A stretch of DNA of 64,000 nt, from positions 62,558,001-62,622,000 of the forward strand of contig OX597822.1 in assembly GCA_951406725.2 (NCBI GenBank), in the 5' to 3' direction. Of the stretch, positions 1 through 56,705 are shown one piece after another. Made by a program: the position numbers and the translations under genes. The notes beneath the pieces are model-generated. The model made no database searches. It saw nothing but the letters and a program-made list of their open reading frames with translations, and was not told the origin of the DNA. Position 1 is the stretch's first letter. Each line of letters begins with the position of its first letter. This DNA comes from Octopus vulgaris (taxonomy: Eukaryota).

Positions 1-889
1 CCAACTTCTCTATCGAGGTTATAAATGCATATCTGTTCCAATAATAATTGCCACACTTGATTTTGTGAGGAAATGCCTAAATGTCAACCTAGGCAAGTTA
101 GGGTTTTCAAGAAAAAATACAACTACTTAATCAGTAAGTGAAACAGTAAAAATATGCAAGATTCTTCTCAAGTTTAAAATACGAATTTGTGTTTGTTATC
201 TAGATTCCAACGATGGAGCTTTGTCTTTGTAAGAAACCAGCTCCTTTCTCTCAGGAAGATTTCAAATAATACTAGAACATATATACATGTAGAGACACTG
301 ATAAACAGAAATACATAAATTCAGTCATTTATCATATATGAATAATCTCATGCGCACGTTTCAGTATATGAGAAAAGAATGATAAATAGTTTATTTGAAA
401 GAGAAAGGGATTGATTTTAAAAAGGACAGATAAATAGACTAGAACACATATACATCCATTTACGTGAGGATGCATTGAAATACGTATAATTATATATGAA
501 ATATTAAAGGTTCAGCATATATATGTTAAAAGTATATTGTTTATTTGTACACTGTTTACACGGAATTATGCTGTCTCATATTTTATCTCTTAGCAGAATT
601 TCTAATTGCTTCTGCCATCTCTTCCAGTAACAGGCATACTTCTCATACTCCCAACTACTTTTTTTCTACCTCTCTACCACATTCTATCTTGCCTCTCTTT
701 TCTGTATGAACCACTTCATCTTTCGTGTTCCGATAGTGCAGTAATCGGATGTAATAGTGTTGCGTACCGTGCAAAAAAACCATCACTCTGCGAGGAAAAA
801 AAAAATTAATCAATTAAAAAAAGCGAGAGAAAAATATGAAGGGGTAAAAAAGGAGCAAAACGTTGTTTCCCCTTTAAACCATTATATAA

Positions 890-1661
890 TATTCCTTTCT
901 ACAATAGGCACAAGGCCTGAAATCTTAGAGGAAGTGGATAGTTGATTACATCGACCCCAGTGACTCTACTGGTACTTATTTCAATGAACCCAAACGAATA
1001 AAGGAAAAAGCCGAATTTCGAATTTGAACTCGGAACGTTAAGACGTGCGAAATATCTATTTCTTTACTACCCATAAGGGGCTAAACATAGAGAGGACAAA
1101 CAAGGGCAGATAAACGGATTAAGTCGATTACATCGACCCCAGTGCGTAACTGGTACTTATTTAATCAACCCCGAAAGGATGAAAGCAAAGTCAACCTCAG
1201 TGGAATTTGAACTCAGAACGTAGCGGCAGACGAAATACCTATTTTTATCTCTTTACTACCTACAAGGAGCTAAACGCAGAGAGGACAAACAAGGGCAGAC
1301 AAACTGATTAAGTCGATTATGTCGACCCCAGTGCGTAACTGGTACTTATTTAATCAACCCCGAAAGGATGAAAGCAAAGTCAACCTCAGTGGAATTTGAA
1401 CTCAGAACGTAGCGGCAGACGAAATACGTATTTCTTTACTACCCACAAGGGGCTAAACACAAAGAAGACAAACAAGGACAGGCAAACGGATTAAGTAAAT
1501 TATATCGACCCCAGTGCGTAACTGGTAATTAATTTATCGACCCCGAAAGGATGAAAAGCAAAGTCGACCTCGGCGGAATTTGAACTCAGAACGTAACGGC
1601 AGACGACATATCGCAAAGCATTTCGCCCGGCGTGCTAACGATTCTGCCAGCTTGCCGCCTT
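890..1661 (-). mobile_element. SINE-A head-to-tail array (4 bodies, one tRNA-like head, three tail-A units)
   Basis: Minus strand starts GGCGGCAAGCTGGCAGAATCGTTAGC (A-box-like) with B-box GAGTTCAAATTCC; a ~185-bp body repeats, with junctions at ~1056, ~1239 and ~1428. Confidence 0.9.
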
Positions 1662-1954
1662 TGAACCGATACTATACTGCCATAAGCGAAAGTGTACATA
1701 TCTTCCGTTTAAGTGCCGTGACTATTTTAAGAGGTGGTGTATATGAAGATAAACGATAAATGTAGCAGAAATCGAAGTCCTAGTAGATGCTCCTTCCAGT
1801 GTTGAAAGGAGCAGACAATTTGATTTTAGAGCGAATGAAATATATACCGTTACTTTCTGGCAGTAAATTAACAAGTCCATTGTAGATATGTGGCCAATAT
1901 AGGTGTTCCATTAAATGTTAAATCAGCAGTGTGGAATTCTAATCCAGCGTCAGT

Positions 1955-2554
1955 AATATTGGTCTCAAAGTTTGGTACCAGGACAGCAATGTTGAGGGAG
2001 CGGGGCAAGTCTATTGCATCGATTCCAACGTCCAACTGCTACTTATTTAATTGGTCGCGAAAAGGATCAAAGGCTATAGCGACATTGGTGGAATCTCAAC
2101 TCCGAACCTAAAGACGGATGAAATGCCGATAAGTATTTTGACCGGCGGCTAACGATTCTTTTCTACTCTAGGCACAAGTCCCGAAAATTTTGAGAAGGGG
2201 GAAATTCTATTGCATCAACCCCAGTTTGCAACTGGTATTTAATTCATCGACCCCGAAAGGATGAAAGGCAAAGTCGACCTCGGCGATATTTGAACTCAGG
2301 AGGGAAAAACAGATGAAATACCTATTTCTTTACTACCCACAAGGGGCTAAACATAGAGGGGACAAACAAGGACAGACAAACGGATTAAGTCGATTACATC
2401 GACCCCAGTGCGCAACTGGTAATTAATTTATCGACCCCGAAATGATGTAAGGCAAAGTCGACCTCGGCGGAATTTGAACTCAGAACGTAGCAGCAGACGA
2501 AATACCGCAAAGCATTTTGCCCGGCGTGCTAACGTTTCTGCCAGCTCGTCGCTT
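1955..2554 (-). mobile_element. SINE-A cluster: older monomer plus a dimer joined at the tail-A junction
   Basis: Same body (ATCGACCCCGAAAGGATGAAAGGCAAAGTCGACCTCGGC on +); junction GAAATACC|TATTTCTTT at 2322/2323; head ends ~2552. Confidence 0.88.
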
Positions 2555-2667
2555 TTCGTGATATTAATATTAAACCATGAAAATTTTCGAGGCGTTACCA
2601 TAGCAGAAAATTGCATATTCAGATTATAATGAAGGGTCACGATATGAAAATGATTGAATGTTTCTTC

Positions 2668-2826
2668 AATATAGTGACTTGACTCCAATTTCAACACACA
2701 AAACATACAATTTTATTCAATTTAATATAGGGTCCTGACTCCAATTTCCATTTATAAGATGTACAATTTTTTATTCACTTTAATACAGTGACTTCATTTT
2801 CAATTCAATAAATTAAAATATACATT
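2668..2826. repeat. Degenerate tandem repeat, ~57-bp unit x3
   Basis: AATA(T/C)AG(T/G)G..(C/T)TGACTCCAATTTC...TACAATTTT recurs three times; the third copy is more diverged. Confidence 0.65.
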
Positions 2827-2869
2827 GTTTATTCTCTGCAAAACTATATAGGAAACAAAAATGTTATAA

Positions 2870-3081
2870 CAATGAAATTAGAAGCACGGACAGCCATTTC
2901 GAGGATGGCAATGAGTCGATTACATCGACTTCAGTACTCCACTGGTACTTATTTTATCGACCCTGAAAGAATGAAAGGCAAAGATGACTTCGGCGGAATT
3001 TGAACCCAGAATATAGAGACGGACGAAATGCCGGTAAGCATTTTGCCTGGTGCGGTAACGATTCTACCAGCTCGCCGCCTT
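2870..3081 (-). mobile_element. SINE-A monomer
   Basis: SINE-A body plus head ending CCAGCTCGCCGCCTT on +. Confidence 0.85.
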
Positions 3082-3099
3082 AATAATAATAATAATAAC

Positions 3100-3183
<84 letters not shown>
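3082..3183. repeat. (TAA)n/(TGA)n microsatellite
   Basis: Seen directly. Confidence 0.97.
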
Positions 3184-3184
<1 letters not shown>

Positions 3185-3590
3185 GCTAATAAACCGGATA
3201 TTATTATAAAAGATCAGACAAAAAAGGTGTGTTTATTAACTGACATAAGTATTCCTTGAGATCACCGTATAGCAACAAAAGAATTTGACAAGATCAGTAA
3301 ATATAAAGACTTGCTAATAGAAATTGAAAAAAATGTGGCATCTCAAGGCGACTACAGTACCAGTGATTGTAGGATCTCTAGGAATGATAAAAAAAAGGTA
3401 CTGAAACCTATTTGATACCAGGCTTACCATCCCTACATGAAGTGCAAAAAACGACTCATGCACTGAGAAGAGCTTTATCGCTGTGAAAACAACATCCATT
3501 CATGAATTTATTTATTTATTTATTTTAAATACATATTTTACCTGTGAATGAGCTTTTCTGCCCTAGGTGTACGGAAAACACAAAATTTGA
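3185..3590 (+). mobile_element. 5'-truncated R4/Dong-clade non-LTR retrotransposon: restriction-like endonuclease fragment and 3' end
   Basis: Translates ANKPDIIIKDQTKKVCLLTDISIP*DHRIATKEFDKISKYKDLLIEIEK, then after a frameshift MWHLKATTVPVIVGSLGMIKK (PD..D..KE..K..KY pattern); flanked by (TAA)n/(TGA)n upstream and (TAA)n downstream. Confidence 0.85.
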
Positions 3591-12993: not shown

Positions 12994-13044
<51 letters not shown>

Positions 13045-13427
13045 TTGTGTGTCTGTGTTTGTCCCCCTAGCATTGCTTGACAACCGATGCTGGTGTGTTT
13101 ACATCCCCGTCACTTAGCGGTTCGGCAAAAGAGACCGATAGAATAAGTACTGGGCTTACAAAGAATAAGTCCCGGGGTCGATTTGCTCGACTAAAAGGTG
13201 GTGCTCCAGCATGGCCGCAGTCAAATGACTGAAACAAGTAAAAGAGAAAAGAGAAAGAGAGTATAACGGGATTCTTTCAGTTTCCGTCTACCAAATCCAC
13301 TCACAAGGCTTTAGTCGGCCCGAGGCTATAGTAGAAGACACTTGCCAAAGGTACCACGCAGTGGGAATGAACCCAGAACCATTTGGTTGGTAAGCAAGCT
13401 ACTTACCACACACCCATTCCTGCGCCT
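12538..13427 (-). mobile_element. SINE-B host copy split by a nested, oppositely oriented SINE-B
   Basis: 3' half at 12538-~12780 and 5' half at ~13263-13427 (ends CCTGCGCCT on +), flanking the + copy. Confidence 0.88.
12827..13260 (+). mobile_element. Full-length young SINE-B
   Basis: GCAGGAGTGGCTGTGTGGTAAG...GGGTTCAGTCCC (A/B boxes), CTTGGGCAAGTGTCTT (CORE-like), internal (TA)n(GT)n, tail GGTGCTCCAGCATGGCCGCAGTCAAATGACTGAAACAAGTAAAAGAG. Confidence 0.93.
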
Positions 13428-14034: not shown

Positions 14035-14436
14035 TGCGTTATCGATTATATCGACCTCAGTATAATTACGTGATAATTTTCATCGCTCTCGTATAGATGA
14101 CAGACAAAGTGGATCTCAACAGGAATTGAACTCAGAACAGCTGCAATTGAATATCACAAAACATTTTTACCACTTATTCTTGATTCGGCCAGTCTATTTA
14201 CCCGATGTTATAATTAATATTGATTTCAAATTTTGGCAAAAGGCCAGTAATTCCGGAGTAGGGGGTACATCGGTTGCATCGATCCCAGTGCTCAACTGGT
14301 ACATATTTTATGGACCCCGAAGGGATGAAGGGAAAATTTGACCTCGGAGGAGTTTGAAATCAGAACGTAAAGACAGACAAAATACCGCTAAATATTTTAC
14401 CTTGCGTGCTCGTGATTCTACCAACTCGCTGCCTTA
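14035..14436 (-). mobile_element. Two adjacent diverged SINE-A monomers
   Basis: SINE-A body motifs at ~14040-14200 and ~14215-14436; the latter has tail-B TTTCAAATTTTGGCAAAAGGCC on +. Confidence 0.75.
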
Positions 14437-20874: not shown

Positions 20875-22780
20875 CAAAGTTTGAAGGAAATGTCAGCCAT
20901 TCTCCATACTTTCTAGGAGTAAGCAAAGAGGGAGTAACAACTGCTACCCAGGGACAAAAATCGTGACATACAGTGTAGGGCTTCTCCTACGATTGTGATA
21001 ATGCCATCATCTATAGGTTTTGCAAGAATTAGAATTCACAGGATATCCCTACAGACTGCCTTCCTGTTTTTTTTTTTCACATTCGTTAATGTGAATTCAG
21101 TTTAGAGATGGAACATAAACTTCATATATTTGAAGCTTCATTTTCACATGTAAATCAGCTTTCATCTAATGTTCCCAAAAGTTCTTCATAGGGATCAATA
21201 GATGCACGACATGATATTGTTGTTATTATTTAGAGCCCAGAAGTATTTTGTCCGGCGTGCTAACGATTCTGCTAGCTCACCGCCTTAAACTGTACCCTAA
21301 ATAACGTAAAAATCATTGTCTGCGGTGAGCTGGCAGAATCGTTAGTATGCCGGATGAAATGCTGCGAAGCAATTTGTCCGTCTTTATATCCTGAGTTCAA
21401 ATTCCAGGGTACTAGCCGATAAAATATGTACTAGTTGAGTACAGTGATCGATGTAATTGACTAGCTCCCTGCCCACAATTTCAGCCCTTGTTCCTAAAGT
21501 AGAAAGAATTAGAGCCCAAATTTGTAATCTGGCAGAATCGTTAAGACGCTAGACAAAATGCTTAGCAGCATTTCGTCCGTCTTTACGTTCTGAGTTCAAA
21601 TTCTGCCGAGGTTGACTTTGCCTTCCATCCTTTCGAGGTCGATAAAATGCTCTTACCAGTCGAGCACTGGGGCTGATGGAATCGATTAAACAGCTCCCCA
21701 CTAAAGTTACTGGACTTGTGCCAAACTGTGAAACCATTAATTAGTCTATGAGAAACAAGATCTATGACAAACAAGGCTGGATAAAGGCCCATAGATGGGC
21801 TAAGCACTTAAAAGATTTTGGCGCTCTCCATATGTATGCAACTCAAAATATAACAATAAAGCATAAAACAATATTTTTTCAGGATGAAGCAAAACTAACA
21901 GTAAAAGGGAAAATAATGTTTACTTTTGTATACTTCCACTTTATTAATATTTGAAAAGTTTTCTCCTATTTTTTTTTAATTGCATTGCCTTTGATTAGAT
22001 CCCCACTATAGGACCATGAACACTTCGAAATTAAATGTCCGATCATATAAACCACCTCGAATACTATTTTAGCATTTACCATTTCTTCGATGCCCCATCT
22101 TCCCTTGATGCGTTAAGCACATACTTATTTTGCTTAATGGTTAATCCAGTTAATGATAATAAAGGAGATAGATTTTCTTTATCTTACATTCAGGAGGGAA
22201 TGAAGCAGTGTCCATAACAATTTACCTGGCCTGAATGCTTGTAACTGATGCTTCTAAAGGCATTCAAGATGTCAGGTTGTACTGTTAAACAGCCCAAGAG
22301 ACATAATAGTGACTACTCTTTCTGTATGTCTTCGACTACCTTTTCCCATATATTCTTCAACTCGGCTGTGGGCTGAGGGAGATTTGGACACCAGTTCTAT
22401 GCTGAGTAATCGTTTAGATATTCCATCATATATCAGTTTTTGGAAGCATTCACGACCAAATACTTTCAATTATAGCTCTCTTTTGATCCGGACTAAAATC
22501 TGTTCAAATGGCCTAGCTGTTCTAGCCGGCTCAGCAGCACAGCTTCATCTTCCTATACACGCGAAGCACTCAGATCTTTCTTAAGAATATAAAGTTTTAT
22601 ATGTGTTCACAATATTGTATTTAAGTACTGCGATTGATGCAAGCATAACTTAATTTCGAAAGCATACTTCGTCCCCATGTTACACTCCTGTTCCTTTTCT
22701 ACATTGACTTAACTAATGCTTTTGATTCACTATTTTGGTATATAAGCAAGGATGCCGAAATTTCATTTTTAATTTGTAAA
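20875..22780 (-). mobile_element. Very degenerate RTE-like LINE pieces interrupted by SINE-A copies
   Basis: Minus fragments GISKRLLSIEL and IMSLGLFNS (AP-endonuclease-like) and IITIVGEALHCMSRFLSLGS (post-RT FxYLGS-like); many stops. Confidence 0.4.
21240..21742 (+). mobile_element. SINE-A cluster: inverted head fragment (21240-21286) and two + monomers (21322-21510, 21528-21742)
   Basis: GGTGAGCTGGCAGAATCGTTAG...CTGAGTTCAAATTC; GTTGACTTTGCCTTCCATCCTTTCGAGGTCGATAAAAT. Confidence 0.85.
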
Positions 22781-23134: not shown

Positions 23135-23517
23135 AATAATCGTTTCTACTGTAGGCACAAGGCCTGAAATTTTGGGGGAGGGGCCAGTACACAACTAGTA
23201 CTTAATTTATCGCTCCCAAAAGGATGAAAGTAAAGTCGACCTCGGCGGAATTTGAATTCAGAACTTAGCGACGGGCGAAATACCTATTTCTTTATTACCC
23301 ACAAAGGGCTAAACATAGAGGGGACAAACAAGGACAGACATAGGTATTAAATCGTTTACATCGACCCCAGTGCGTAACTGGTACTTATTTAATCGACCCC
23401 GAAAGGATGAAAGGCAAAGTCGACCTCGGCGGAATTTGAACTCACAACGTAACGGCAGACGAAATACCGCTAAGTATTTTGTCCAGCACGCTAACGGTTC
23501 TGCCAGCTCACCGCCTT
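23135..23517 (-). mobile_element. SINE-A dimer with tail-A junction
   Basis: GAAATACC|TATTTCTTT at 23284/23285; head ends CCAGCTCACCGCCTT. Confidence 0.9.
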
Positions 23518-29611: not shown

Positions 29612-29995
29612 CTCCGTCTTCACGTTCTGGGTTCGAATTCCGCCGAGGTCGAGTTTGCTTTTCATCCTTTTGGGGTCGATACAATTAGTATCAGTTGAGC
29701 ACTGGGGTTGATTTAATCGACTTTTCCTCTGCCCCGAAATTGTAGGCCTTGTGCCATAATTTGAAGTCACTATTAAATTTAACATTAATGCGGCGAGCTG
29801 GCTGAGTCTTTAACACGCCGGGCTAAATGCTTACTAGCATTTCGTCCGCCTATATGTTCTGATTTCAGATTTTGTAGACTTTTCCTTTCGAAGTCGCCAA
29901 ACTAAGTATTACTTAAGGATTTTAGGTATATCTAATCGTCTTGCCCCTCCACCAAGATTGCTGACCTTGTGTCAAAATTTGAAACCAATATTAAA
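29612..29995 (+). mobile_element. Two SINE-A monomers in tandem, both with tail B
   Basis: GGGTTCGAATTCCGCCGAGGTCGA...GGCCTTGTGCCATAATTTGAA; second copy GCGGCGAGCTGG...CCTTGTGTCAAAATTTGAAACCAATATT. Confidence 0.85.
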
Positions 29996-33092: not shown

Positions 33093-34160
33093 CTAGCAGG
33101 TATACCCGGCATTGCCCGAGTTAAAGAGAATAATGAAATTTAAAAACGCTGTCTAGATTACACGGGTCTCAACTGCTAGTAGCTGAGATACCAACTTTCT
33201 ACATTAATAACTCTCCAACCCATGCCAGTATGGAATATGGACGTTAAGTGAAATGCTAGAAGAAATTTTTCTACTCATATATGTATATAAAGTAAATACA
33301 CGTGATTCAAAAACACGCTTTGTGTAGCTTATTTCGTAACCAAAAGACGGGTACAGGTTATAAACAATCAAAGGCCGACTTTGGTGATTCATTTCACAGA
33401 AGTAGTAGAGAAGCAATCCGATGATACATCTGACCTTAGATCTTGAAAGTTTGCATGAATCCTGGCTAAGTTAAATCTGTTGTGACTCCAAATGATGTTA
33501 TCTGTAGTGCAGCGTTGCAATGTCTAATTTTGTTTTGGAAGTGTTTGGAATCTTGGTCAGTTGATATCAACAGTTTCTTTAATGGATCTGGAGATTGTGG
33601 GGTTGCAGGGAGTTTAAGCTTTCCACCACTGCAGCACAGTGCAGGTGTCTCTTCAGGCCACTTCCTTGCTTTACAATGTATGCACTCAGTTGCCATTGCA
33701 CCAATGGAAACTCTAGTGTCATCTTCAAAGTGCACTGCTGGATCATAATGAAAAGCTGCTTCATAGAAGTTATCTCTCTGAGCTGTTGCAAATGCTCTTC
33801 GTTCTGCAGTGGAGATCCTATTCCTTGTCAGCCATGCATACTTCTGTTCATCACTTTGAGGTGTTCTCGCTTTTGTAGTGCACAGTCTGTTTGTTTTTTG
33901 GTATGCTTCCAATTCTGCAGCTGTCGTTCTTTCCCTGGACAGAAATATTCTTTTGGCTGGAATATAGTAGATAAATTTGATACTTTCATTCTAAGCATGG
34001 TTATATACGTATACAGAACTACACGGGTGCAGAAAATATTAAATAATGAAGTACATATAAAGTAAGTCCTTCTGCAATGACTAGTTCTAACTAAAGAGTT
34101 GCCGGCGATAATATTGTCTAGTACGATAATATTGTACTAGACAATATTATCGCCGTATAA
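33093..34160 (-). mobile_element. Internally deleted Helitron (Rep N-terminal region plus 3' hairpin/CTAG end)
   Basis: ORF 33466-33912: CIHCKARKWPEETPALCCSGGKLKLP...FQNKIRHCNAALQITSFG, continuing GFMQTFKI*GQMYHRI; minus 3' end CTCGGGCAATGCCGGG...CTAG|T at ~33093. 5' boundary uncertain. Confidence 0.88.
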
Positions 34161-34227: not shown

Positions 34228-35305
34228 TCAGGCTGAGTACAAAGGAAGTAACGTTTTGAAACTTGGAATTAATCACAATAAATATCAACAATACGGAAAT
34301 TTTATTCACCAAAGTAGGTACCATTACAATCAACACATTTTTGTTACAAATTTGCTTATTCCGGTAACATAGAAATCTGAAGTTCTAGAGCTGATGAACT
34401 CTTTGAACGCACATTTAGCATCGGTTTGATTTTTGAACGCCTTCTCTCGCAGGAAACCATCAAGGTTCTTGAAAAGTGGTAGTCTCTAAGGGAAAGGTCA
34501 AGGGAATAAGCTGGTTGGGGAAGAACGTCGTAGCCATGTTCTCTCAATTTCTGGAGAATTAGTGAAACGTGTGGTCGGGCATTGTCGTGAAGGATGATTG
34601 TTCTTCTGTAGACCATTCTGGGACGAAGTTGAAGCAGTTTTTCGTTCCTTTTGGCAATTTCATGGCAATATGTTTCTGCAGTTATGTTTTTTCCAGGTTA
34701 TAAGAAGTTATAGTGGAGGAGTCCAGCAGTACACTACCAAACAGTCACCGTAACCTCACAGCTCAGATTTTTCATTTTGGTCCAACTACTGCAAATAACG
34801 ATTCTTATTATTGTACAGAATCCATTTTTCACCGCAAGTTACATTACGGTCGAGAAATGGATCGGTCTGGTTATGGAGAAGCGACGAGCAAATTTCATAT
34901 CAGCGCATATTCTGGTTTCCATTCAAATCATGTGGTACCTATTTGTCGAGCATTTTTGATTTTCCGATCGCATTCAAATAGTTGCAGGCAGTTTTCTGGC
35001 TAACTTGAAGTTCCTTTGCCAGTTCTTACGTAGTTTTACGTAGATCTTTCTCAATGACGTTCTTTACTTGATCATCATCGATGACAGATGGGTTGTTCGC
35101 TACGCTCACGACATTCAAGGCTCAGGACTCCACTGCGAAATCGTTCGAACCATTTTCGAGCTGACCACTCACTGGTCATTTACACACCAAACGTTTCGTT
35201 GATATCGCGAGCAGTTTCAGCTACTTTACGTCCTTTTTTGAAGTTGAACAACAAAATTACTCGAATATCGTGCATTGACAGTTCCAGTTCACATTATTGC
35301 AACAA
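34228..35305 (-). mobile_element. Near-complete degenerate mariner transposon
   Basis: Minus: IRVILLFNFKKGRKVAETARDINETFG...WFERFRSG; LDK*VPHDL; HDNARPH; PAYSLDLSLRDYH (YSPDL). Confidence 0.9.
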
Positions 35306-35309
35306 CGTT

Positions 35310-37385
35310 TGCTTTATTGCCCACAGGGGATCAAACATAGAGGGACGGTACAAATAAGAGAGTGGTCGATGGTGTGTATTGTTTTTACGCAGAGGTGAAA
35401 AGTTAAAAATTTATATAATCGAATGATCAGCAAAACAAATACACAAACAATAAAGTTTGCCTGGCCCCTGCAAACCCCGCGCCACCATTGTAACCTTTAG
35501 TATAAACTTATAGATACACTATGTGGGTTCATTCATTCGCAACAAATTCACCACATCCTTCCATCTTTTTCCATATACATCAGGTGACAGGCAGTTTCTC
35601 TCCCCCCTTACTTTCCTCTTAAGGTGGTATATGAGGTAATGGACCAGTCCAAGGCTAGAGATGAATGTGCCTGTCACGATTCCTTTCACGCGGGTCTTCC
35701 ATACCGCTTCTTTCACTATAGCGACCACAGCGAGAAAACAAACCTTGCCTTCTATGTTAAAAGAAGGAGGAACAAGCTTTACAATTGACTCGGAAGACAG
35801 TTGTACTCTTTCCAGCCGTGACAGCAGATGTTCAACGTAAACCCACATCTCAGAGATTTTGGGGCATTGCACAATTGCGTACAAAACGGTTTCCCCGTTC
35901 TGCTCACATCTTGGACACGTGAGTGCGCAAGGGTCACTATGCCTTGCGAGTTTATCGCGAACTGGTAAGGCTCCTCGGTAAAACTGCCAAGCCAGGGATC
36001 CTCGGAAGTTATCCAAGGGTTCTGGCCCAAATGTCCTTCGGAACAGGCCAGCTAATAGACCATCATCCCCCAGAACGTCGTCATACTGCACATCTACCAA
36101 TCCTGTATAGGAAGACAATATGGAACCCCCGCCGCTGGCGTTGCCCGTGTGACAGAGAAGCTTGGATGCCTCGCGAAACTCCGCTTGCCAAGTACCCAAC
36201 TTTGGTCTACACTTGATCCAAGGTCTTAGTTCACTCAAACTAGTAAGCTCAGGAAGTAACGACCGAACGAATGGAGACCACACCTGCTCACCATCCAGGT
36301 AGAGTCACAGATGGCTCAGCCTCATCGCATGTCTGAGCATCAATAGCCAAGGCATCCCTAGCCTACCTTTTAGCGGGTGCTGACAGCAGATAGAGCACTT
36401 TACAAGAGGACTTCTACCATTCTACAAAAAGCGGAAAAGCAGCCGCTCCAACTTGATCAGTCTCGAACGGGAGCAAGGCACGACAAGTAGGCGGTAGGTA
36501 ATAACAGAAGCGATAAACATTCCTTCGACCTCCGCCCTTCCTTTCAGGGATAGCCGCCACTTAGACCAGGCCTGAGTTAGGTGGTTCACCTTGCTCGTCA
36601 CCTCGCTACAATTCTTCTCTACCTAGAGTGCTGGACTGAACAAAACCCCTTGCATTTTAACCGGCCTCTCCGTCCAACGCACTACGACATTGTTGGGAGG
36701 TATCGTTTTGCCTCTCTAGGTGCCGAGTTGCAAGCCCACTGACTTATCCCGGCTAACATTTACTCCTTCCAACGCCTCGTAGTCCTTAATGGCTTCAGAC
36801 ACGATGATGGTGATGTCGTCCGCGTACCCTGAAACCTTCCTACTGCAACCTAGACTTGCCCTTCAAGTCCTCCAACTTCCGCAGTAAGGGCTCTAGAGCC
36901 AACACACACAGAGGGGAGGAGAGAGAACACCCTTGACGAACATTGCGCTTGATGTTGAACGGCTTCAAGAAGAACCCGTTCACTCGGACGATCGATTCGA
37001 TATTGTTGTATAACACAATGATCCACCCGCTGAAGACGGGGCCGAGTCCGAACGCCGCGAGGACCGACACCAGATACCGATGTCAACCCTGTCAAAAGCT
37101 TTGGACTGGTCTAAATGGTCCAGCGCCCCACCCTTGCCAGGAGATCCATTAACCCTCTCTAAGGTGTAGTGTAGGTGGAGATTATCGTGTATGGATCTTC
37201 CAGGAACGGCACAAGTTTGTGCCTCCCCGACGACTCCAGCCACGACACACGCTAACCTTTTTGCTAACACTTTGGCCAAAATCTTAAACTCTGCGTTAAT
37301 CAGAGTGATGGCCCTGAAATTATCTATAATATCCCCCTTTTTGGGTCCTTTCTAAGCAGCGTCACCACTCCCCGGCTCACAGATC
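35310..37385 (-). mobile_element. 5'-truncated Tx1/L1-clade LINE (RT, zf-RVT, ~200-bp 3' UTR)
   Basis: NFRAITLINAEFKILAKVLAKRL, QTCAVPGRSIHDN, LDQSKAFDRVD, VRQGCSLS, YADDITI, CPRC...ETVLYAIVQCP; frameshifted. Confidence 0.92.
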
Positions 37386-37539: not shown

Positions 37540-37758
37540 AATATTGCTTTCAAATTTTGACACACGGCCAGCAATTTCGGTGGAGGAATTGGTCGATTAG
37601 ATTGACTCCAGTGCTCGACTGATACTCATTTTATCGACTTTGAAAGGATAAAATACACTGTTAACCTCACTGGAATTTTAATTCAGGAAGTAAAGACGGA
37701 CGGAATGCTGCTAAGCATTTTACCTAGCATACTAACGAATCTGCCAGCTCACCGCCTT
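37540..37758 (-). mobile_element. SINE-A monomer (tail B)
   Basis: TTTCAAATTTTGACACACGGCCAGC...CTGCCAGCTCACCGCCTT. Confidence 0.8.
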
Positions 37759-40094: not shown

Positions 40095-40508
40095 ATCGCC
40101 ATATTAATATGGCAGTCTTATAGATAAAAGACTAAAAGCTGTCGCTGATTAGCTCCATGAGGCCATCGCCTTAAGATAGCTATTTGACACACAAACTGTG
40201 TCCATTATAACCTTCGAACAAGGGAAGTCAGCCGCTTCACACTGCCAGTCAGACAGCTACAGACGCGTTTCAGGGTATTTGCCCTTTGTCAATGTAACGT
40301 AGTCAGACCCAGTAGGTGTCGCCACTGATCGTCTCTGTTCGAAGGTTTTATTTACCTAGTTTCGGTGGAATACATCCACTTGTTTTCAATAATAGAAATA
40401 TTAAAATTACTAAGTCTCTCTAAAAGAGATTACGGCAGCGTTACTGGAAATTAATTGTTATCGCCATATTAATAAGACTAAAAGCTGGGTCTGACTACGC
40501 TACATTGA
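40091..40508 (-). mobile_element. Penelope-like terminal-repeat fragment with hammerhead folds and direct/inverted end duplications
   Basis: Hammerhead at 40256-40298; second decayed fold at 40348-40394; TGTTATCGCCATATTAATA repeated at 40091 and 40456; 40485-40508 is the reverse complement of 40289-40312. Confidence 0.7.
40256..40298 (-). ncRNA. Minimal type I hammerhead ribozyme, U3-A8 core variant
   Basis: Minus: GTTACA TTGACAA AGGG-CAAATA-CCCT GAAA CGCG TC TGTAGC. Confidence 0.8.
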
Positions 40509-42212
40509 ATGGAGTTTGATACAGCTACTCTTATTTGCACCTCTTGCCGTGAGGTAGGTTCATCTGGGACTCTTGACAGGAGGATGTTCAGCTTTGATTT
40601 AAAAACCGCTACATCTACTTTGTGCAATTTCCTCAGACTCTTTGGGAGAATATTAAAAAGCTGTGGGCCCTTGAAACCCAGGCTGTTGCAGAAGCTGGTC
40701 CTGAAGCGTGATGGCATTGCTGGGATCTTTGGCACTATGCAGTGTCGTCCCGTTCTAGCATTGGTGTAGCTTACAATGCCAAAATTTGGCACAATTCCTT
40801 CCAGGATCTTCCAGACATATATTACTGCATACCTCTCCCGTCGTCTCTCCAGGGAGTAGAGTCTTAGCTGTTTCAACCTTTCCCAGTAGCTGAGCTGTTG
40901 CAAAGAGACGATCTTCTTTGTGAATCTTCTCTGGATTGCTTCAAGGTCCGCTGCTAATTTTACACTGGTGGGTGACCATAGCTGTGAGCAGTAATCCAGG
41001 CGACTGAGGACGAATGTCCGCCAGAATGTTCTTAGGATCCACCCAGCCAGTCGTCTGCACTTTGTCGCCATCCTGGTAATGTGCACTTGGAAAGAGGTAT
41101 CATCATTCATGTCAATACCCAGGTCCCTCACAGACTTAGCTCTGGGATTGAAATTCCCTGTGGACCGGTGTATCCTGTAAGTTTAATATTCAGTTTTGGA
41201 TGCTGGTAGCGCAGGACCTGCAATTTTTCAGCATTAAACTGCATATTATTATCCTCAGCCCATCTGTAGATTGAGTCCAACTCCTGCTGCAGGTGTGCAA
41301 CATCGCTGGGGTTCTGTATTTTCTGCGAGACTTTCGTATCGTCTGCATAGCTGGCCAGAGTGGCTATCCGGGCACTTGAGGGCATATCTAAGAGGGCCAC
41401 TATAAAAAGCAGTGGTCCCAAGACAGTGCCCTGTGGAACACCGCTCACTATTTGTGTGTTCATAGAGGTGGCTCCATTAACCACTACTGCCTGACTCCTA
41501 TCTTTCAGGAAGTCATGCAACCACACTCCAAGTTTTCCAGCTATGCCGAGGTCACGTAGTTTGTGGCATATCATACCATGATCCACCTTGTCAAAAGCTT
41601 TTGCAAAATCAAGGTTTATTACGTCCACATTTGATTTGTTGAGTAACTGCCTCAACACCCAGGCATAATGCTGTAAGAGCTGGGTCAGGCAGCTCCTACC
41701 TGGTCGGAAACCATGCTGGGTATTACTCAGCAAGTTATTTTCCTCAAGGAATGCGATTAGTTTCTTTCTGACTACCCGTTCCATGACTTTGCTGATGTGT
41801 GAAGTCAGAGAGATAGGCCTATAGTTTTTTGGCATCTGCTCTACTTCCCCCTTTATGTATTGGGCATATTATTCCCTCCTTCAGCTTGCTTGGCAGTTTG
41901 CCATTCGCAAGAAAGCTCTGGAAGAGAATCTTGAGGGGTTTTGCCAGGGCATGCTTACACGCTTTGAGGAGGATGGCTGGGAAACCGTCTGGAGCAGCAG
42001 CTGAGTTTGTGTCCACTTCATCTATGGCTAGTAGGACATCTTTTTCGCAAATGTCAATACATTCTATTGTAACCGCCTCGCTGGTTATAGGTGAGGCGGC
42101 AGAGAAGTCCACTGGTTCGTTCACTTGTCTGTGTTCCAACGGGGTGGTAAAGACACTTTTGAACTGGTCATTCAGCATCTCACTGATCATAGTTGGACTG
42201 TCTGTGAGGGAG
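40509..42212 (-). mobile_element. CR1-like LINE ORF2 fragment (RT), frameshifted
   Basis: NYRPISLTSHISKVMERVV, QHGFRPGRSCLTQL, LDFAKAFDKVDH, SGVPQGTVLGPLLF, YADDTK, RDLG, YWERLKQLRLYSLERRRERY. Confidence 0.93.
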
Positions 42213-42244
42213 CCATATATATGTATACACATTATATATATATT

Positions 42245-42286
<42 letters not shown>

Positions 42287-42853
42287 AATGTACACAATAT
42301 ATCTGATTAATAATATATGTTATGATTGTGCGGTGATGGTGGGCGATAATAATTCACCGTTCTAAAAGACCTGTAGCAGGAATAGATACATACAAACGTA
42401 CAGTGAGAGAGGTGGTTGAAGAAAGAATGATAGAGAGGCGGCAAAGCTGTCAGACGTCGTTATAGAGAGAAATTGGAGGGAAGGAAGGAAAGAGAGAGAC
42501 GGAGGAAGAGAGGGTGATATGCGAAGGGGAGAAACGATAAACACTTGTCAAGGTGTGGGTTTTGTAGCCCTAGTAACCACAGCCTTTGAGATAGGAGTTT
42601 TTAACCTAGCCCACTCACTTCATCGCCTCTTTTTACTTGTCCCTGTAAATTTTGGAGCCAATCCGACCCCATCTAGTGCCCGTTCACCCGGTTCAATCCC
42701 AAAATGAGACAAACAAACTTTTCGCATGTCAGCTTTATAGATATTGATATACATATATATAGAAATATTTTTTTATTCTCAAACGCGTGATAATGTTAAT
42801 TAAATTAGCGTGAACAGGATAAATTATCCATACATTGCAGAAAAATATGTTAT

Positions 42854-48039: not shown

Positions 48040-48939
48040 TGTGAGTGTGTGTGTGCGGGGGTTGGGGTGGATGGGTGTATGTTAGATGATTCGGTAATAC
48101 TTCCATACATGGCACTTCGTAAGCAAGGAAATAGAAACACTCAATTTCTATTATGCGTTTACGCTTATAAATATTTTCTAGCAATGACATTCTACAATTC
48201 TCTGTCGTTATTGCATTTAGGAATCTATACTTCTGGTTGAAAATCAGCGCGGTGACATTCGAAGACTGGACGATCTTCAAGGTGCTAATAAGTGTTTTCC
48301 AATTATAAATGTTTCTGCTAAAAAGAAAGAAGCATATTTTCTTTATTTAACACGCACGATTGTCTACTTGGTCATAATAAAAGCAATCAAAATAAGTGGA
48401 CTAAATTGATTCAAAAGAACATTTCTATTTTCAAACTGTCTTTATCGGTTGATTTAATTAAGTAATAATAGCAAAACGGGGGCAGTTTCATTGAGATAAC
48501 GCTGCTGTTCGTTGAGATAATGGAGTAGAAACTAATGCGACAGAAAGAACTATATCTGGATGTACTTGCAGTTGTTATTGTGGTTTGATAGAACAGCTGA
48601 TGAACAAGAATCATTTGGATTTATCGACTTTTGTTGAGAGCAATTGGCATCGTTTGTTGCTTTCTATCGTTGAGCATGCACGAAATCGTTCAATAATCTT
48701 ATTAATCACAGTTTTTACTTCCCGGTAGACAGTCATTACTTCACTTGATTATATTTATCTGGCAGCTTCAATATTTTAACGGATTCGTACCTATAACAAT
48801 TATGATTATTTAAATACTTGATGTCAGAGTGAATTTGAAATCAATACCTGCATATCACGGTGTATACAGACTGCCATATTCTCTCATTATTTGATCCCTG
48901 ATTAGCTCGATATAATTTCTGTATGTTGCCGAAATGCTC

Positions 48940-49299
48940 TTTTATGCTCTAGACACAAGGCCCGAAACTTTAGTGGGAGAGGACCAGTCGATTACATCAA
49001 CCCCAGTACGCAACTGATACTTAATTTACCGACCCCGAAAGGGTGAAAGGCCTAGTCGACCTCGGCGGAATTTGAACTCAGAACGTAGCGGCTGACGAAA
49101 TACCTATTTCTTTTCTACCCACAAAGGGCTAAATACAGAGAGGACAAACAAGGACAGACAAACGGATTAAGTCGATTATATCGACCCCAGTGCGTAACTG
49201 GTACTTATTTAATCGACCCCCAAATGGATGAAAGGCAAAGTAGACCTCGGCGGAATTTGAACTGAGAACGTAGCGGCTGACGAAATACCGCTAGGCATT
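48940..49299 (-). mobile_element. SINE-A dimer with tail-A junction, head truncated
   Basis: GAAATACC|TATTTCTTT at 49104/49105. Confidence 0.9.
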
Positions 49300-54496: not shown

Positions 54497-54557
54497 TATA
54501 TACGTTATATAAATATATTTCTATTATGTTTCTGCATTTGATATATATATATATATC

Positions 54558-55762
54558 TTGGCATAGTTGGCATAGTTGGAAAATTAGGAGAATGGCTTCA
54601 TGACTTTCTGAAGAATAGAAGTCAGGTGGTAACAGCCAATGGGGCCACTTCCATTAACACGCAAATAGTGTGCGTTGTTCCGCAGAGCACTGTTTTGGGA
54701 CCACTACTGTTCATAATGGCCCTCTCAGACATGCCCTCCCCCACGCAGAGAGCCACGATTACAAGTTATGCAGATGATACAAAAGTTTCACAGGCAATAC
54801 AGAACCCTGAGGACACTAAGCACCTGCAATGTGAGCTGGACGAAATATACAAGTGGGCTGAAAAGAATAGCATGCAGTTCAATGCTGAAAAGTTTCAAGC
54901 TTTATACTATCAGCATGCAAAACTGAATGCAATACCCAATGAATACACTGGACCCGGAGGGATTGCAATCCCAGAGGCACAATCAGTGCGTGACCTGGGT
55001 ATTCACATGAGTGATGACGCGACCTTTCATGTACATGTTGCTAAACTGGCAATGAAATGCAGACGGCTGGCTGGATGGATTCTTAGAACCTTCAGAACAA
55101 GAGAACAAGAAACCATGATGGTCCTCTGGAAGACACTTGTCCTAAGCCACTTTGACTATTGCTCTCAGCTATGGTCACCATCCAGTGTCACGATGATCAC
55201 AGAACTTGAGGCGATCCAACGAAGCTACACGAAGAAGATAGCATCTGTGCAGCATATGAGCTACTGGGAAAGACTCAAGAGATTAAAGCTCTATTCCCTG
55301 GAGCGTAGGCGAGAAAGATATGCCACAATATATATCTGGAAGATCCTGGAAGGACTTGTCCCAAACTTTGGCATCTAGAGTCACACAAATGCCAGAACCG
55401 GGCGCCACTGCATAGTACCAAGGACTCCAAATTTGCCATCAAGATGTAGGACAAGATATTGTGATAGCCTGGGCTTCAGAGGCCCACAGCTCTTCAATAT
55501 CCTCCCAAAGAACCTCAGGGACCTGCATGGTGTAGATGCGGATGTCTTTAAAGTAGGACTGGACCTCTTCCTGTCAGGTGTCCCGGATGAACCAACTTCA
55601 CGGCAGGAGGTGCAGATGAGGGCAGCTGCATCGAACTCTCTCATGCATCAGATGGCGTTTGCTAAAAAGCATCCGTGAGGTAAAATCGTGTAGCAAACAA
55701 TATGGCGGTGCCCCAGCATGGCCACAGCTCATTAGCTGAAAATGGAAAAATCAAAATCAAAA
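54558..55762 (+). mobile_element. CR1-like LINE 3' portion, relatively young (250-aa open frame)
   Basis: VPQSTVLGPLLF, YADDTK, RDLG, AGWILRTF, YWERLKRLKLYSLERRRERY; one stop at 55376-55378; 3' UTR GGCGGTGCCCCAGCATGGCCACAG. Confidence 0.93.
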
Positions 55763-55960: not shown

Positions 55961-56705
55961 TTTACAAAATAAGGGCAAAAGAAGTAAGTATTTCACTTAT
56001 ATCTCACGTATTTATCGCTGAAGAGGGGAACATTCTTATGAATTAACCCCGAAATTGGGACCAATGCGGTAATAACGGATTCTTTAGAAATTTCTATCGG
56101 TTTGTTTCGAGACGCATAAATTATAATGGTTACTCTTTACTCTTTTACTCTTTTACTTGTTTCAGTCATTTGACTGCGGCCATGCTGGAGCACCGCCTTT
56201 AGTCGAGCAAATCGATCCTGGGACTTATTCTTTGTAAGCCCAGTACTTATTCTATCGGTCTATTTTGCCGAACCGCTAAGTGACGGGGACGTAAACACAC
56301 CAGCATCGGTTGTCAAGCAATGCTAGGGGGACAAACACAGACACACAGACACACAAACACATATACACACACACATATATATATATACATATATACGACA
56401 GGCTTCTTTCAGTTTCCGTCTACCAAATCCTCTCACAAGGCATTGGTCGGCCCGGGGCTATAGCAGAAGACACTTGCCCAAGATGCCACGCAGTGGGACT
56501 GAACCCGGAACCATGTTGTTGGTTAGCAAGCTACTTACCACACAGCTACTCCTGCGCCTATTTTTGTCTTTTTTTCGGCATATTTGGCATTAGAATTTTT
56601 CTTTTGCCCTTATTTTGTAAATTATTTATAAATTTAACCTTTAAAGGTATTTTTTGATATGCTGGCCATTGATAAAAAATTTTTCCCGAAAAAAATATCC
56701 TACAT
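55960..56705 (+). mobile_element. Penelope-like terminal fragment with hammerhead fold (56012-56072), split by SINE-B
   Basis: TTATCG CTGAAGA GGGG...CCCC GAAA TTGG-GA-CCAA TG CGGTAA; inverted 23-mer TTTACAAAATAAGGGCAAAAGAA (55961) / TTCTTTTGCCCTTATTTTGTAAA (56599). Confidence 0.62.
56130..56559 (-). mobile_element. Full-length young SINE-B
   Basis: Near-exact reverse complement of 12827-13260 with (TTTTACTC)n tail repeats. Confidence 0.93.

Follow-up and report, generated by a model that had tools for sequence, protein, structure and literature searches.

Nested copies show that a tRNA-type SINE of Octopus vulgaris with a LINE-like tail (tail A) inserts, as read from its sequence traces, at head base 50 of family members already in place. 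We favour, with a probability of about 0.7, targeted insertion that duplicates the target and prefers a short sequence present at base 50 of the element's own head. An L1/Tx1-type LINE is the likely mobiliser, and annealing of the copied head is a likely step. Because the preferred sequence lies within its own head, the element would often land in older copies of the family. A dispersed SINE would in this way become dispersed arrays through insertion and not through recombination alone, at no fewer than 24,000 junctions, with its own head as a harmless landing site that retains the promoter. A repeat library in which the dimer stood as a single consensus would assign the family a wrong age, and the order of SINE within SINE can serve as a relative clock.

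The SINE and its arrays in the window

The SINE unit is 234 bases long, with a head (bases 1-49), a body (bases 50-170) and then tail A, tail B or the older tail C. We take an A-box-like motif to lie at about head bases 13-24 and a B-box-like motif at about bases 74-86, going by the general box consensus. The element is short, non-coding, high-copy and interspersed, has target-site duplications (mean length about 15) and shares its 3' tail with LINEs, all features of a tRNA-derived SINE (SINE2). An ARAGORN scan found no tRNA in it, and Rfam gave no match in window positions 800-3200. A search of the 2.8-Gb genome returned 50,455 exact matches to the 29-base tail A on both strands. In monomers with tail A, 32/46 duplications reach 10/13 matches, compared with 5.6% of shuffled pairs. 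The head folds a 7-bp hairpin just 5' of base 50 (whole-sequence z -0.81, not significant), and 0/4 pairs of the tail hairpin are compensatory across six sequences. The central domain presumably resembles the Meta type, a 66-bp domain that follows the head. A search for the Meta-domain motif in the supplements available for the MetaSINE/MESC paper gave no match.

One variant of the tail-A head, at bases 45 and 50, is present in a third of A monomers and alters the letter with which the element's own target site begins. It was absent among free B and C copies. It may possibly be a form of self-protection against the element's own insertion.

The window, by which we mean the whole 64,000-nucleotide stretch analysed, contains four arrays, all on the minus strand. 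Array 1 opens with its sole full head (bases 1-49, with the A-box-like motif; 1613..1661). This is followed by unit 1, a body from base 50 with tail A (1429..1612), by units 2 (1240..1428) and 3 (1057..1239), both with tail A, and by a terminal unit with an old body and tail B (888..1056), which is the likely host copy. A tail in array 1 carries a 5-letter insertion at 1240. Units 2 and 3 have a 1-base deletion and two substitutions in common and so come from one source, likely by local duplication. Array 2 has a head and tail-A unit (2323..2555) and a terminal tail-B unit (2158..2322), after which an older headless copy (2002..2157) starts at about head base 17. Array 3 consists of a head and tail-A unit (23285..23517) and a terminal tail-B unit (23135..23284), and is flanked as a whole by a duplication of about 13 bases. 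Array 4 has a tail-A unit with a 5'-truncated head (49105..49299) and a terminal tail-B unit (48935..49104), both of which carry one variant at body base 12.

The original prediction, made from the letters of this window, described an invariant junction in these arrays. Its six junctions, at 1056, 1239, 1428, 2322, 23284 and 49104, are exact, and each lies at element base 50. The register is constant but the letters are not, with ATA followed by CGTATT at 1428 and by GATATT at 1056. The outermost unit of array 1 was rightly described as far more diverged than the nested ones (17.1% vs 2.0%). The comparison of outer with inner units that had been proposed gives the same direction in the other three arrays (15.9% vs 3.6%, 7.2% vs 3.6% and 6.0% vs 1.2% in arrays 2, 3 and 4). 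As had been stated, tail B is found on free monomers of the window, but some of them have the older tail C. These tail-B/C monomers are potential hosts; one lies at 14224..14435 (minus strand) and others near 2914-3081, 21529-21722, 29622-29755 and 37540-37758.

The window also holds an inverted pair of a different abundant short repeat (13002-13195 and 56198-56391, 93% alike). A 174-aa open frame on the minus strand (33466-33990) presumably resembles a Helitron protein.

Self-insertion and the preferred target

The pattern of site, gap and head that marks nested full-length copies was found 325 times genome-wide. Two control sites in the same SINE unit gave 14 and 52 matches, some of which come from tandem clusters. 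Among the first 30 of the 325 nested loci, the first tail of the insert is tail A in 29. Upstream of the insert, 17 have a host head and 9 a tail A, while 4 score as neither. Where a host head is present, 11/17 inserts repeat non-consensus host letters in the duplicates on their 5' and 3' sides, and the body that continues 3' of the inserted tail is an old B or C one. Within these 30 loci, three (L127, L132, L139) have no matching duplicate, one (L143) has no tail, and L141 and L142 are one locus. A clean nested case, L022, was met without selection for nesting, and 32 A..B arrays include one clean nested copy and two more possible ones. The excess over the control sites, the varied hosts and the duplications point to independent insertions that prefer one fixed site in another copy of the repeat. 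These nested copies support the predicted insertion of tail-A copies into existing heads at one fixed base, as do older terminal units with free-B letters, but the predicted strict specificity is not upheld. At L141/L142 (G000:C1:194001252-194001351) the head and duplication occur twice, with 65-base spacing, before an array.

Tail A had been thought always to join the same nucleotide, and never unique DNA. The latter is true inside the window. Genome-wide, the exact junction octamer follows 18,836 of the 50,455 exact tail-A matches. We tabulated the 3' letters of 183 tail-A ends, exact or near, which were drawn from the first 100 matches and their surroundings regardless of their 3' side. SINE body follows 105 of the 183 and does not follow the other 78, about three of which are degraded SINE bodies. 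Of 122 sampled arrays, 74 have a terminal tail A that borders unique DNA (single copies make up 42 of these), 30 close with a B or C unit, 7 end in truncated or partial units and 11 were unparsed. Ends in unique flanks, which the original prediction named as evidence against itself if numerous, are indeed numerous and count in part against it. They rule out strict specificity for base 50 and indicate a strong preference.

In unique DNA, too, the tail boundary is the exact end of the tail-A element. Duplications in unique flanks were detected in 48/94 arrays; 23 of them begin right at this boundary and 42 no more than 2 bases from it. The upstream (5') duplicate reads G17 G17 T23 A25 T19 at positions +1 to +5 (n=32), which gives (G/T)(G/A)TAT as the target in unique DNA, and head base 50 starts with a matching motif. 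Since the motif is present in the 5' duplicate, it was already in the target before insertion. Only 328 exact tails precede four letters that are all unlike the motif.

Head base 17 is a second fixed self-target site, and the choice between the two sites goes with the tail variant. Of the exact matches with a GGGCAAT tail, 1,448 join base 17 and 560 join base 50. For GGGTAGT tails the counts are 154 for base 17 and 24,011 for base 50 (odds ratio 403). The variants also differ in unique DNA, where the GGGCAAT tail is followed by A in 13/20 and the GGGTAGT tail by G or T in 61/64. Tail B of array 2 in the window likewise joins base 17 of the older copy. Tail variants three letters apart that hit two bases of one head are a natural experiment in non-LTR target choice.

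LINE relatives and the choice of site

A broken, 5'-truncated L1/Tx1-like LINE lies in the window at 35310..37351 on the minus strand, with an RVT_1 domain and a zf-RVT domain just below the cut-off. The last 50 columns of its end match tail A at 37/50, and it is related to what is likely the tail donor and partner. Its end joins a mariner-type transposase fragment with HTH_48 (34900..35309, minus strand). In its family, 14/27 ends join one site just before the start of the mariner-type transposase (L277-L317), in a search whose query held about 12 flank letters and in which one of the hits is the window itself. Exact matches at this mariner site have non-SINE, LINE-type sequence upstream in 12/12 cases and never the SINE.

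LINE relatives carry RVT_1, Exo_endo_phos and zf-RVT domains. Among solved structures, human L1 ORF2p comes closest (1.9e-50) to a related ORF that looks intact, with R2 at 2.3e-22. The nearest named relatives of a LINE protein from the genome are from Argonauta and a cuttlefish. The closeness to L1 ORF2p indicates L1-group affinity, with the Tx1 clade as a candidate placement. A young family with 1138-aa open frames (L319-L347) ends at (CT)n microsatellites, like Kibi. Another, with frames of 1140-1150 aa, ends at one base of the head of another abundant SINE in 5/5 copies read (L348-L350, L354, L355; e.g. G000:C1:9675040-9675560), and has a 26-letter exact stretch in common with tail A. A third LINE family carries the same hairpin as tail A. 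A radiation of LINEs with similar ends thus goes to other fixed sites. LINE ends at head base 50 or 17 were seen in 0 of the 27 + 25 + 18 read among the top hits, and two pattern searches returned no LINE with an exact tail A. On the evidence of these relatives, an L1/Tx1-type LINE likely mobilises the tail-A SINE.

Some LINE copies with 1130-1132-aa frames stand in tandem at a spacing of about 5.2-5.3 kb (G000:C22:14228489-14244948, C27:32957896-32985160, C30:10439669-10451015), and their 3' ends carry the tail-A hairpin. The window also contains two fragments of another RVT_1 LINE in inverted orientation (40478-42319 and 54542-55378), which we take to be CR1-like. The end of this LINE has no likeness to tail A.

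In the standard view the site of a Tx1 element is chosen by the endonuclease of the partner. Site choice by the SINE could be made by such an endonuclease, or be aided by pairing of a read-through RNA with the target. In the second case the SINE RNA would read through its tail into the flank of the source copy and pair this extension with the next target, a proposal that we hold tentatively and rate well below an even chance. The association of tail variant with head site and the LINE-only mariner site would both fit such a memory of the target, but partners with different endonucleases fit equally well. A search for letters templated by RNA in the 3' duplicates gave 11 changes towards the motif and 3 away from it among 32 rows, to which we give no weight: about half of these cases lie in microsatellite rows whose register is ambiguous, two rows are from the nested set and one array is counted twice. 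If the proposal were true, a copy that landed in a SINE head would send its offspring to SINE heads, a self-feeding loop that yields arrays with promoters. One LINE machinery would then serve differing heritable targets set by RNA. The tail variants make the question of endonuclease or RNA pairing directly testable, and it bears on RNA-templated gene insertion tools.

The closest precedent for targeted insertion by the octopus SINE, in the portions of the papers available, is SINEU-3/Tx1-Mar of crocodilians. There 313/347 near-full-length copies of SINEU-3 have Mariner-N4_AMi as their flanking sequence, and a Tx1 partner is credited (PMC4494074, Kojima 2015). Tandem copies are attributed to sequential insertion, and separate partners are proposed for each site (PMC4494074). 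Like SINEU-3, the octopus SINE strongly prefers a repeat target, and a LINE family here is also found at one site of a mariner element. Unlike that of SINEU-3, its target is its own tRNA-type head, its tail is common to a LINE group, and two tail variants use two head sites, with tens of thousands of junctions. SINEU-3 leaves two copies around a duplication, whereas the octopus joins are mostly seamless with one head. Target-specific LINEs of the Tx1 clade include Tx1 in Tx1D, Keno in U2, Kibi in (TC)n and Koshi in (TTC)n (PMC4494074). The octopus LINE families resemble them in ending at (CT)n, a mariner site and a SINE head.

The MetaSINE/MESC superfamily combines a tRNA-type head, a central domain and exchangeable LINE-derived tails (PMC4824008, PMC4758252). 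The octopus SINE appears to have the same organisation. Self-targeting is absent from the descriptions of the superfamily in the portions available (PMC4824008, PMC4758252). The octopus SINEs OK/OR1/OR2 belong to the same comparison. Target-preferring SINEs carried by Tx1 elements and one-head multimers of a single family were thus already known. What appears to be new is targeting of the element's own head with variant-specific sites, for which the portions of the literature searched, including cephalopod repeat papers, contained no account; Repbase and Dfam lay outside this search and may name the family.

Origin of the seamless arrays

As nested copies are a small share, the seamless majority has to be explained by inference. 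We used 99 A..B arrays, that is, the sample plus 90 added loci, 70/99 of which were chosen by an exact match to the A-B pattern in the B unit. The exact A-B pattern has 2,716 matches genome-wide. In 38 pairs the outer unit is 8.0% and the inner unit 3.6% diverged (outer higher in 28, lower in 7). Across the 99 arrays, divergence from the own-class consensus is 7.9% in terminal and 3.5% in inner units (81 vs 18), and CpG decay is 0.193 vs 0.109 (52 vs 17, p 1.4e-5). Terminal units bear the diagnostic letters of free B monomers. By these comparisons terminal tail-B and tail-C units are, as dated by divergence, older than inner units, and they belong in kind with the free monomers. CpG decay is lower in terminal B units than in free B (0.193 vs 0.297), and the terminal ones are thus the younger of the two. 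The outer duplications are not clearly older in A..B arrays: mismatch is 6.6% there, 6.8% and 4.3% in tail-A-ended arrays and 10.2% in free B, and neither contrast is significant.

The seamless 5' join had been predicted to form by homology inside the host head. Simple retention of the host head is ruled out as a rule by the A-only head variant, which is present in 25/99 A..B arrays and 23/69 A monomers but in 0/54 free B monomers. The heads of seamless arrays thus appear to be mostly of tail-A type and not of host type. A hidden host-type duplication opening the first unit is not general either: first units show A-type letters there, and first and terminal units have rare variants in common in 9/99 arrays only, scattered along the body. 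The copied head likely anneals to the host head and replaces it, which would make most joins seamless and leave one head per array. The A-type heads would follow from such annealing or, equally, from recopying of whole dimers. Head sequence is weakly linked to both neighbouring units (Mantel r 0.027 and 0.030).

A parallel exists in R1 of the Drosophila melanogaster group. For R1 RNA whose 5' end matches the upstream DNA, cDNA annealing that yields precise junctions was proposed (PMC2718515, Stage and Eickbush 2009); R1 without the 5' match duplicates upstream sequence (PMC2718515). In the portions of that paper available, the precise and duplicated junctions parallel the seamless and nested heads of the octopus SINE. 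Unlike the SINE, R1 is autonomous and resides in rDNA, and its precise joins involve an upstream top-strand cut with a 9-bp deletion (PMC2718515).

Dimeric or multimeric master genes (head-A-B, head-A-A) copied whole would need self-insertion only to found the masters and the rare nested copies. The tail-A look of the heads in A..B arrays is what such masters would transmit, and a single duplication encloses the whole array in 57/80, about as intact as in A monomers. Terminal units, however, fall into different kinds (C as well as young and old B) and are more CpG-decayed than the adjacent unit. First and last units have similar loads of singleton mutations (0.82% vs 0.93%; 33 vs 31, p 0.35), as masters would predict, but inner and outer divergence correlate weakly (rho 0.19) and no A-B haplotype link was detected (Mantel r 0.011, p 0.21), in a comparison of low power whose positive control was itself weak (r 0.029). 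On balance the view that most seamless arrays were copied whole from a few such masters is fairly unlikely. Under the targeted insertion that we prefer, insertion would come first, and whole arrays, each keeping a promoter, would then be recopied.

A dimer could also form in one insertion if reverse transcriptase started on tail-B RNA, halted near base 50 and jumped to the 3' end of tail-A RNA. This would yield an A-type head, a B-type end and a single outer duplication, as observed, but base 50 would then call for a reason of its own, whereas the genomic duplications of unique-DNA insertions and those of nested copies have one and the same starting motif. It also predicts equal CpG decay after insertion unless the templates were old copies, and we regard it as very improbable.

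Unequal exchange or slippage at the GAAAT homology, at the DNA level, might have formed and extended all arrays, as was proposed for similar clam arrays in the portion of the paper available (PMC11481361). Of 125 adjacent A-A pairs, 65 have at least one rare variant in common (37 at least two, 28 one), units 2 and 3 of array 1 are such a pair, and long regular arrays exist, with 10 units at G000:C1:4676257-4677962. The other 60 pairs have none in common, and their agreement at seven diagnostic sites (0.64) is slightly above random (0.54). About half of A-A neighbours would accordingly share a source, having been duplicated locally or copied together, and the other half look independent. Unequal exchange cannot yield nested full heads with duplications, nor the association of tail variant with head site. 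As the sole cause it is very unlikely and largely refuted by the nested copies; it is a real secondary process and not the origin. Targeted self-insertion would seed the arrays, and local duplication with whole-array copying would extend them.

Tandem multimers of one SINE family are described in the blood clam (PMC11481361) and SINE-derived satellites in squamates (PMC10702118). In the portions of these papers available, the arrays resemble those of octopus in having a complete head in the first unit only and one duplication around the array. Recombination was invoked for those arrays, whose inner units end in truncated tails, whereas the octopus inner units have a complete, different tail and nested insertions are demonstrated.

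Least credible of all is rolling-circle reverse transcription of an RNA of unit length, circularised after a cut within the hairpin of bases 38-57. It can appeal to the non-significant 7-bp hairpin just before base 50, but no ribozyme family matches (Rfam, 800-3200; an undescribed ribozyme is possible). A base-50 circle would lack the full head with which arrays usually open, and does not fit the older B or C unit with which they often close or the many neighbouring units that differ at diagnostic sites. Among the alternatives that the original prediction had listed, local duplication therefore operates (units 2 and 3), whole-array copying probably does, and rolling-circle copying gains no support from the DNA sequence.

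Comparison with relatives gives one hint in favour of targeted insertion. In a relative about 7-8% diverged in the flanks, tail A is 20-40 times rarer relative to the body: the ratio of tail-A to body depth is 0.006 there and 0.22-0.30 in three close relatives (positions 1462 and 1528), contig depth being distinct from copy number. L259 is a seamless dimer whose head carries the A-only variant. There, contigs of the diverged relative from both unique flanks of the orthologous locus nevertheless enter the head and tail B for about 14-25 letters, which at this one locus is below the 31-letter bridging rule. Where we looked for an empty site at window positions 200-2900, contigs of the relatives break within the SINE.

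Tandem SINE 5' parts with a period of 90-121 bases occur at G000:C11:81438137-81438781, C22:276904-278560 and C3:20297198-20297468, and have the appearance of seeds of SINE-derived satellites.
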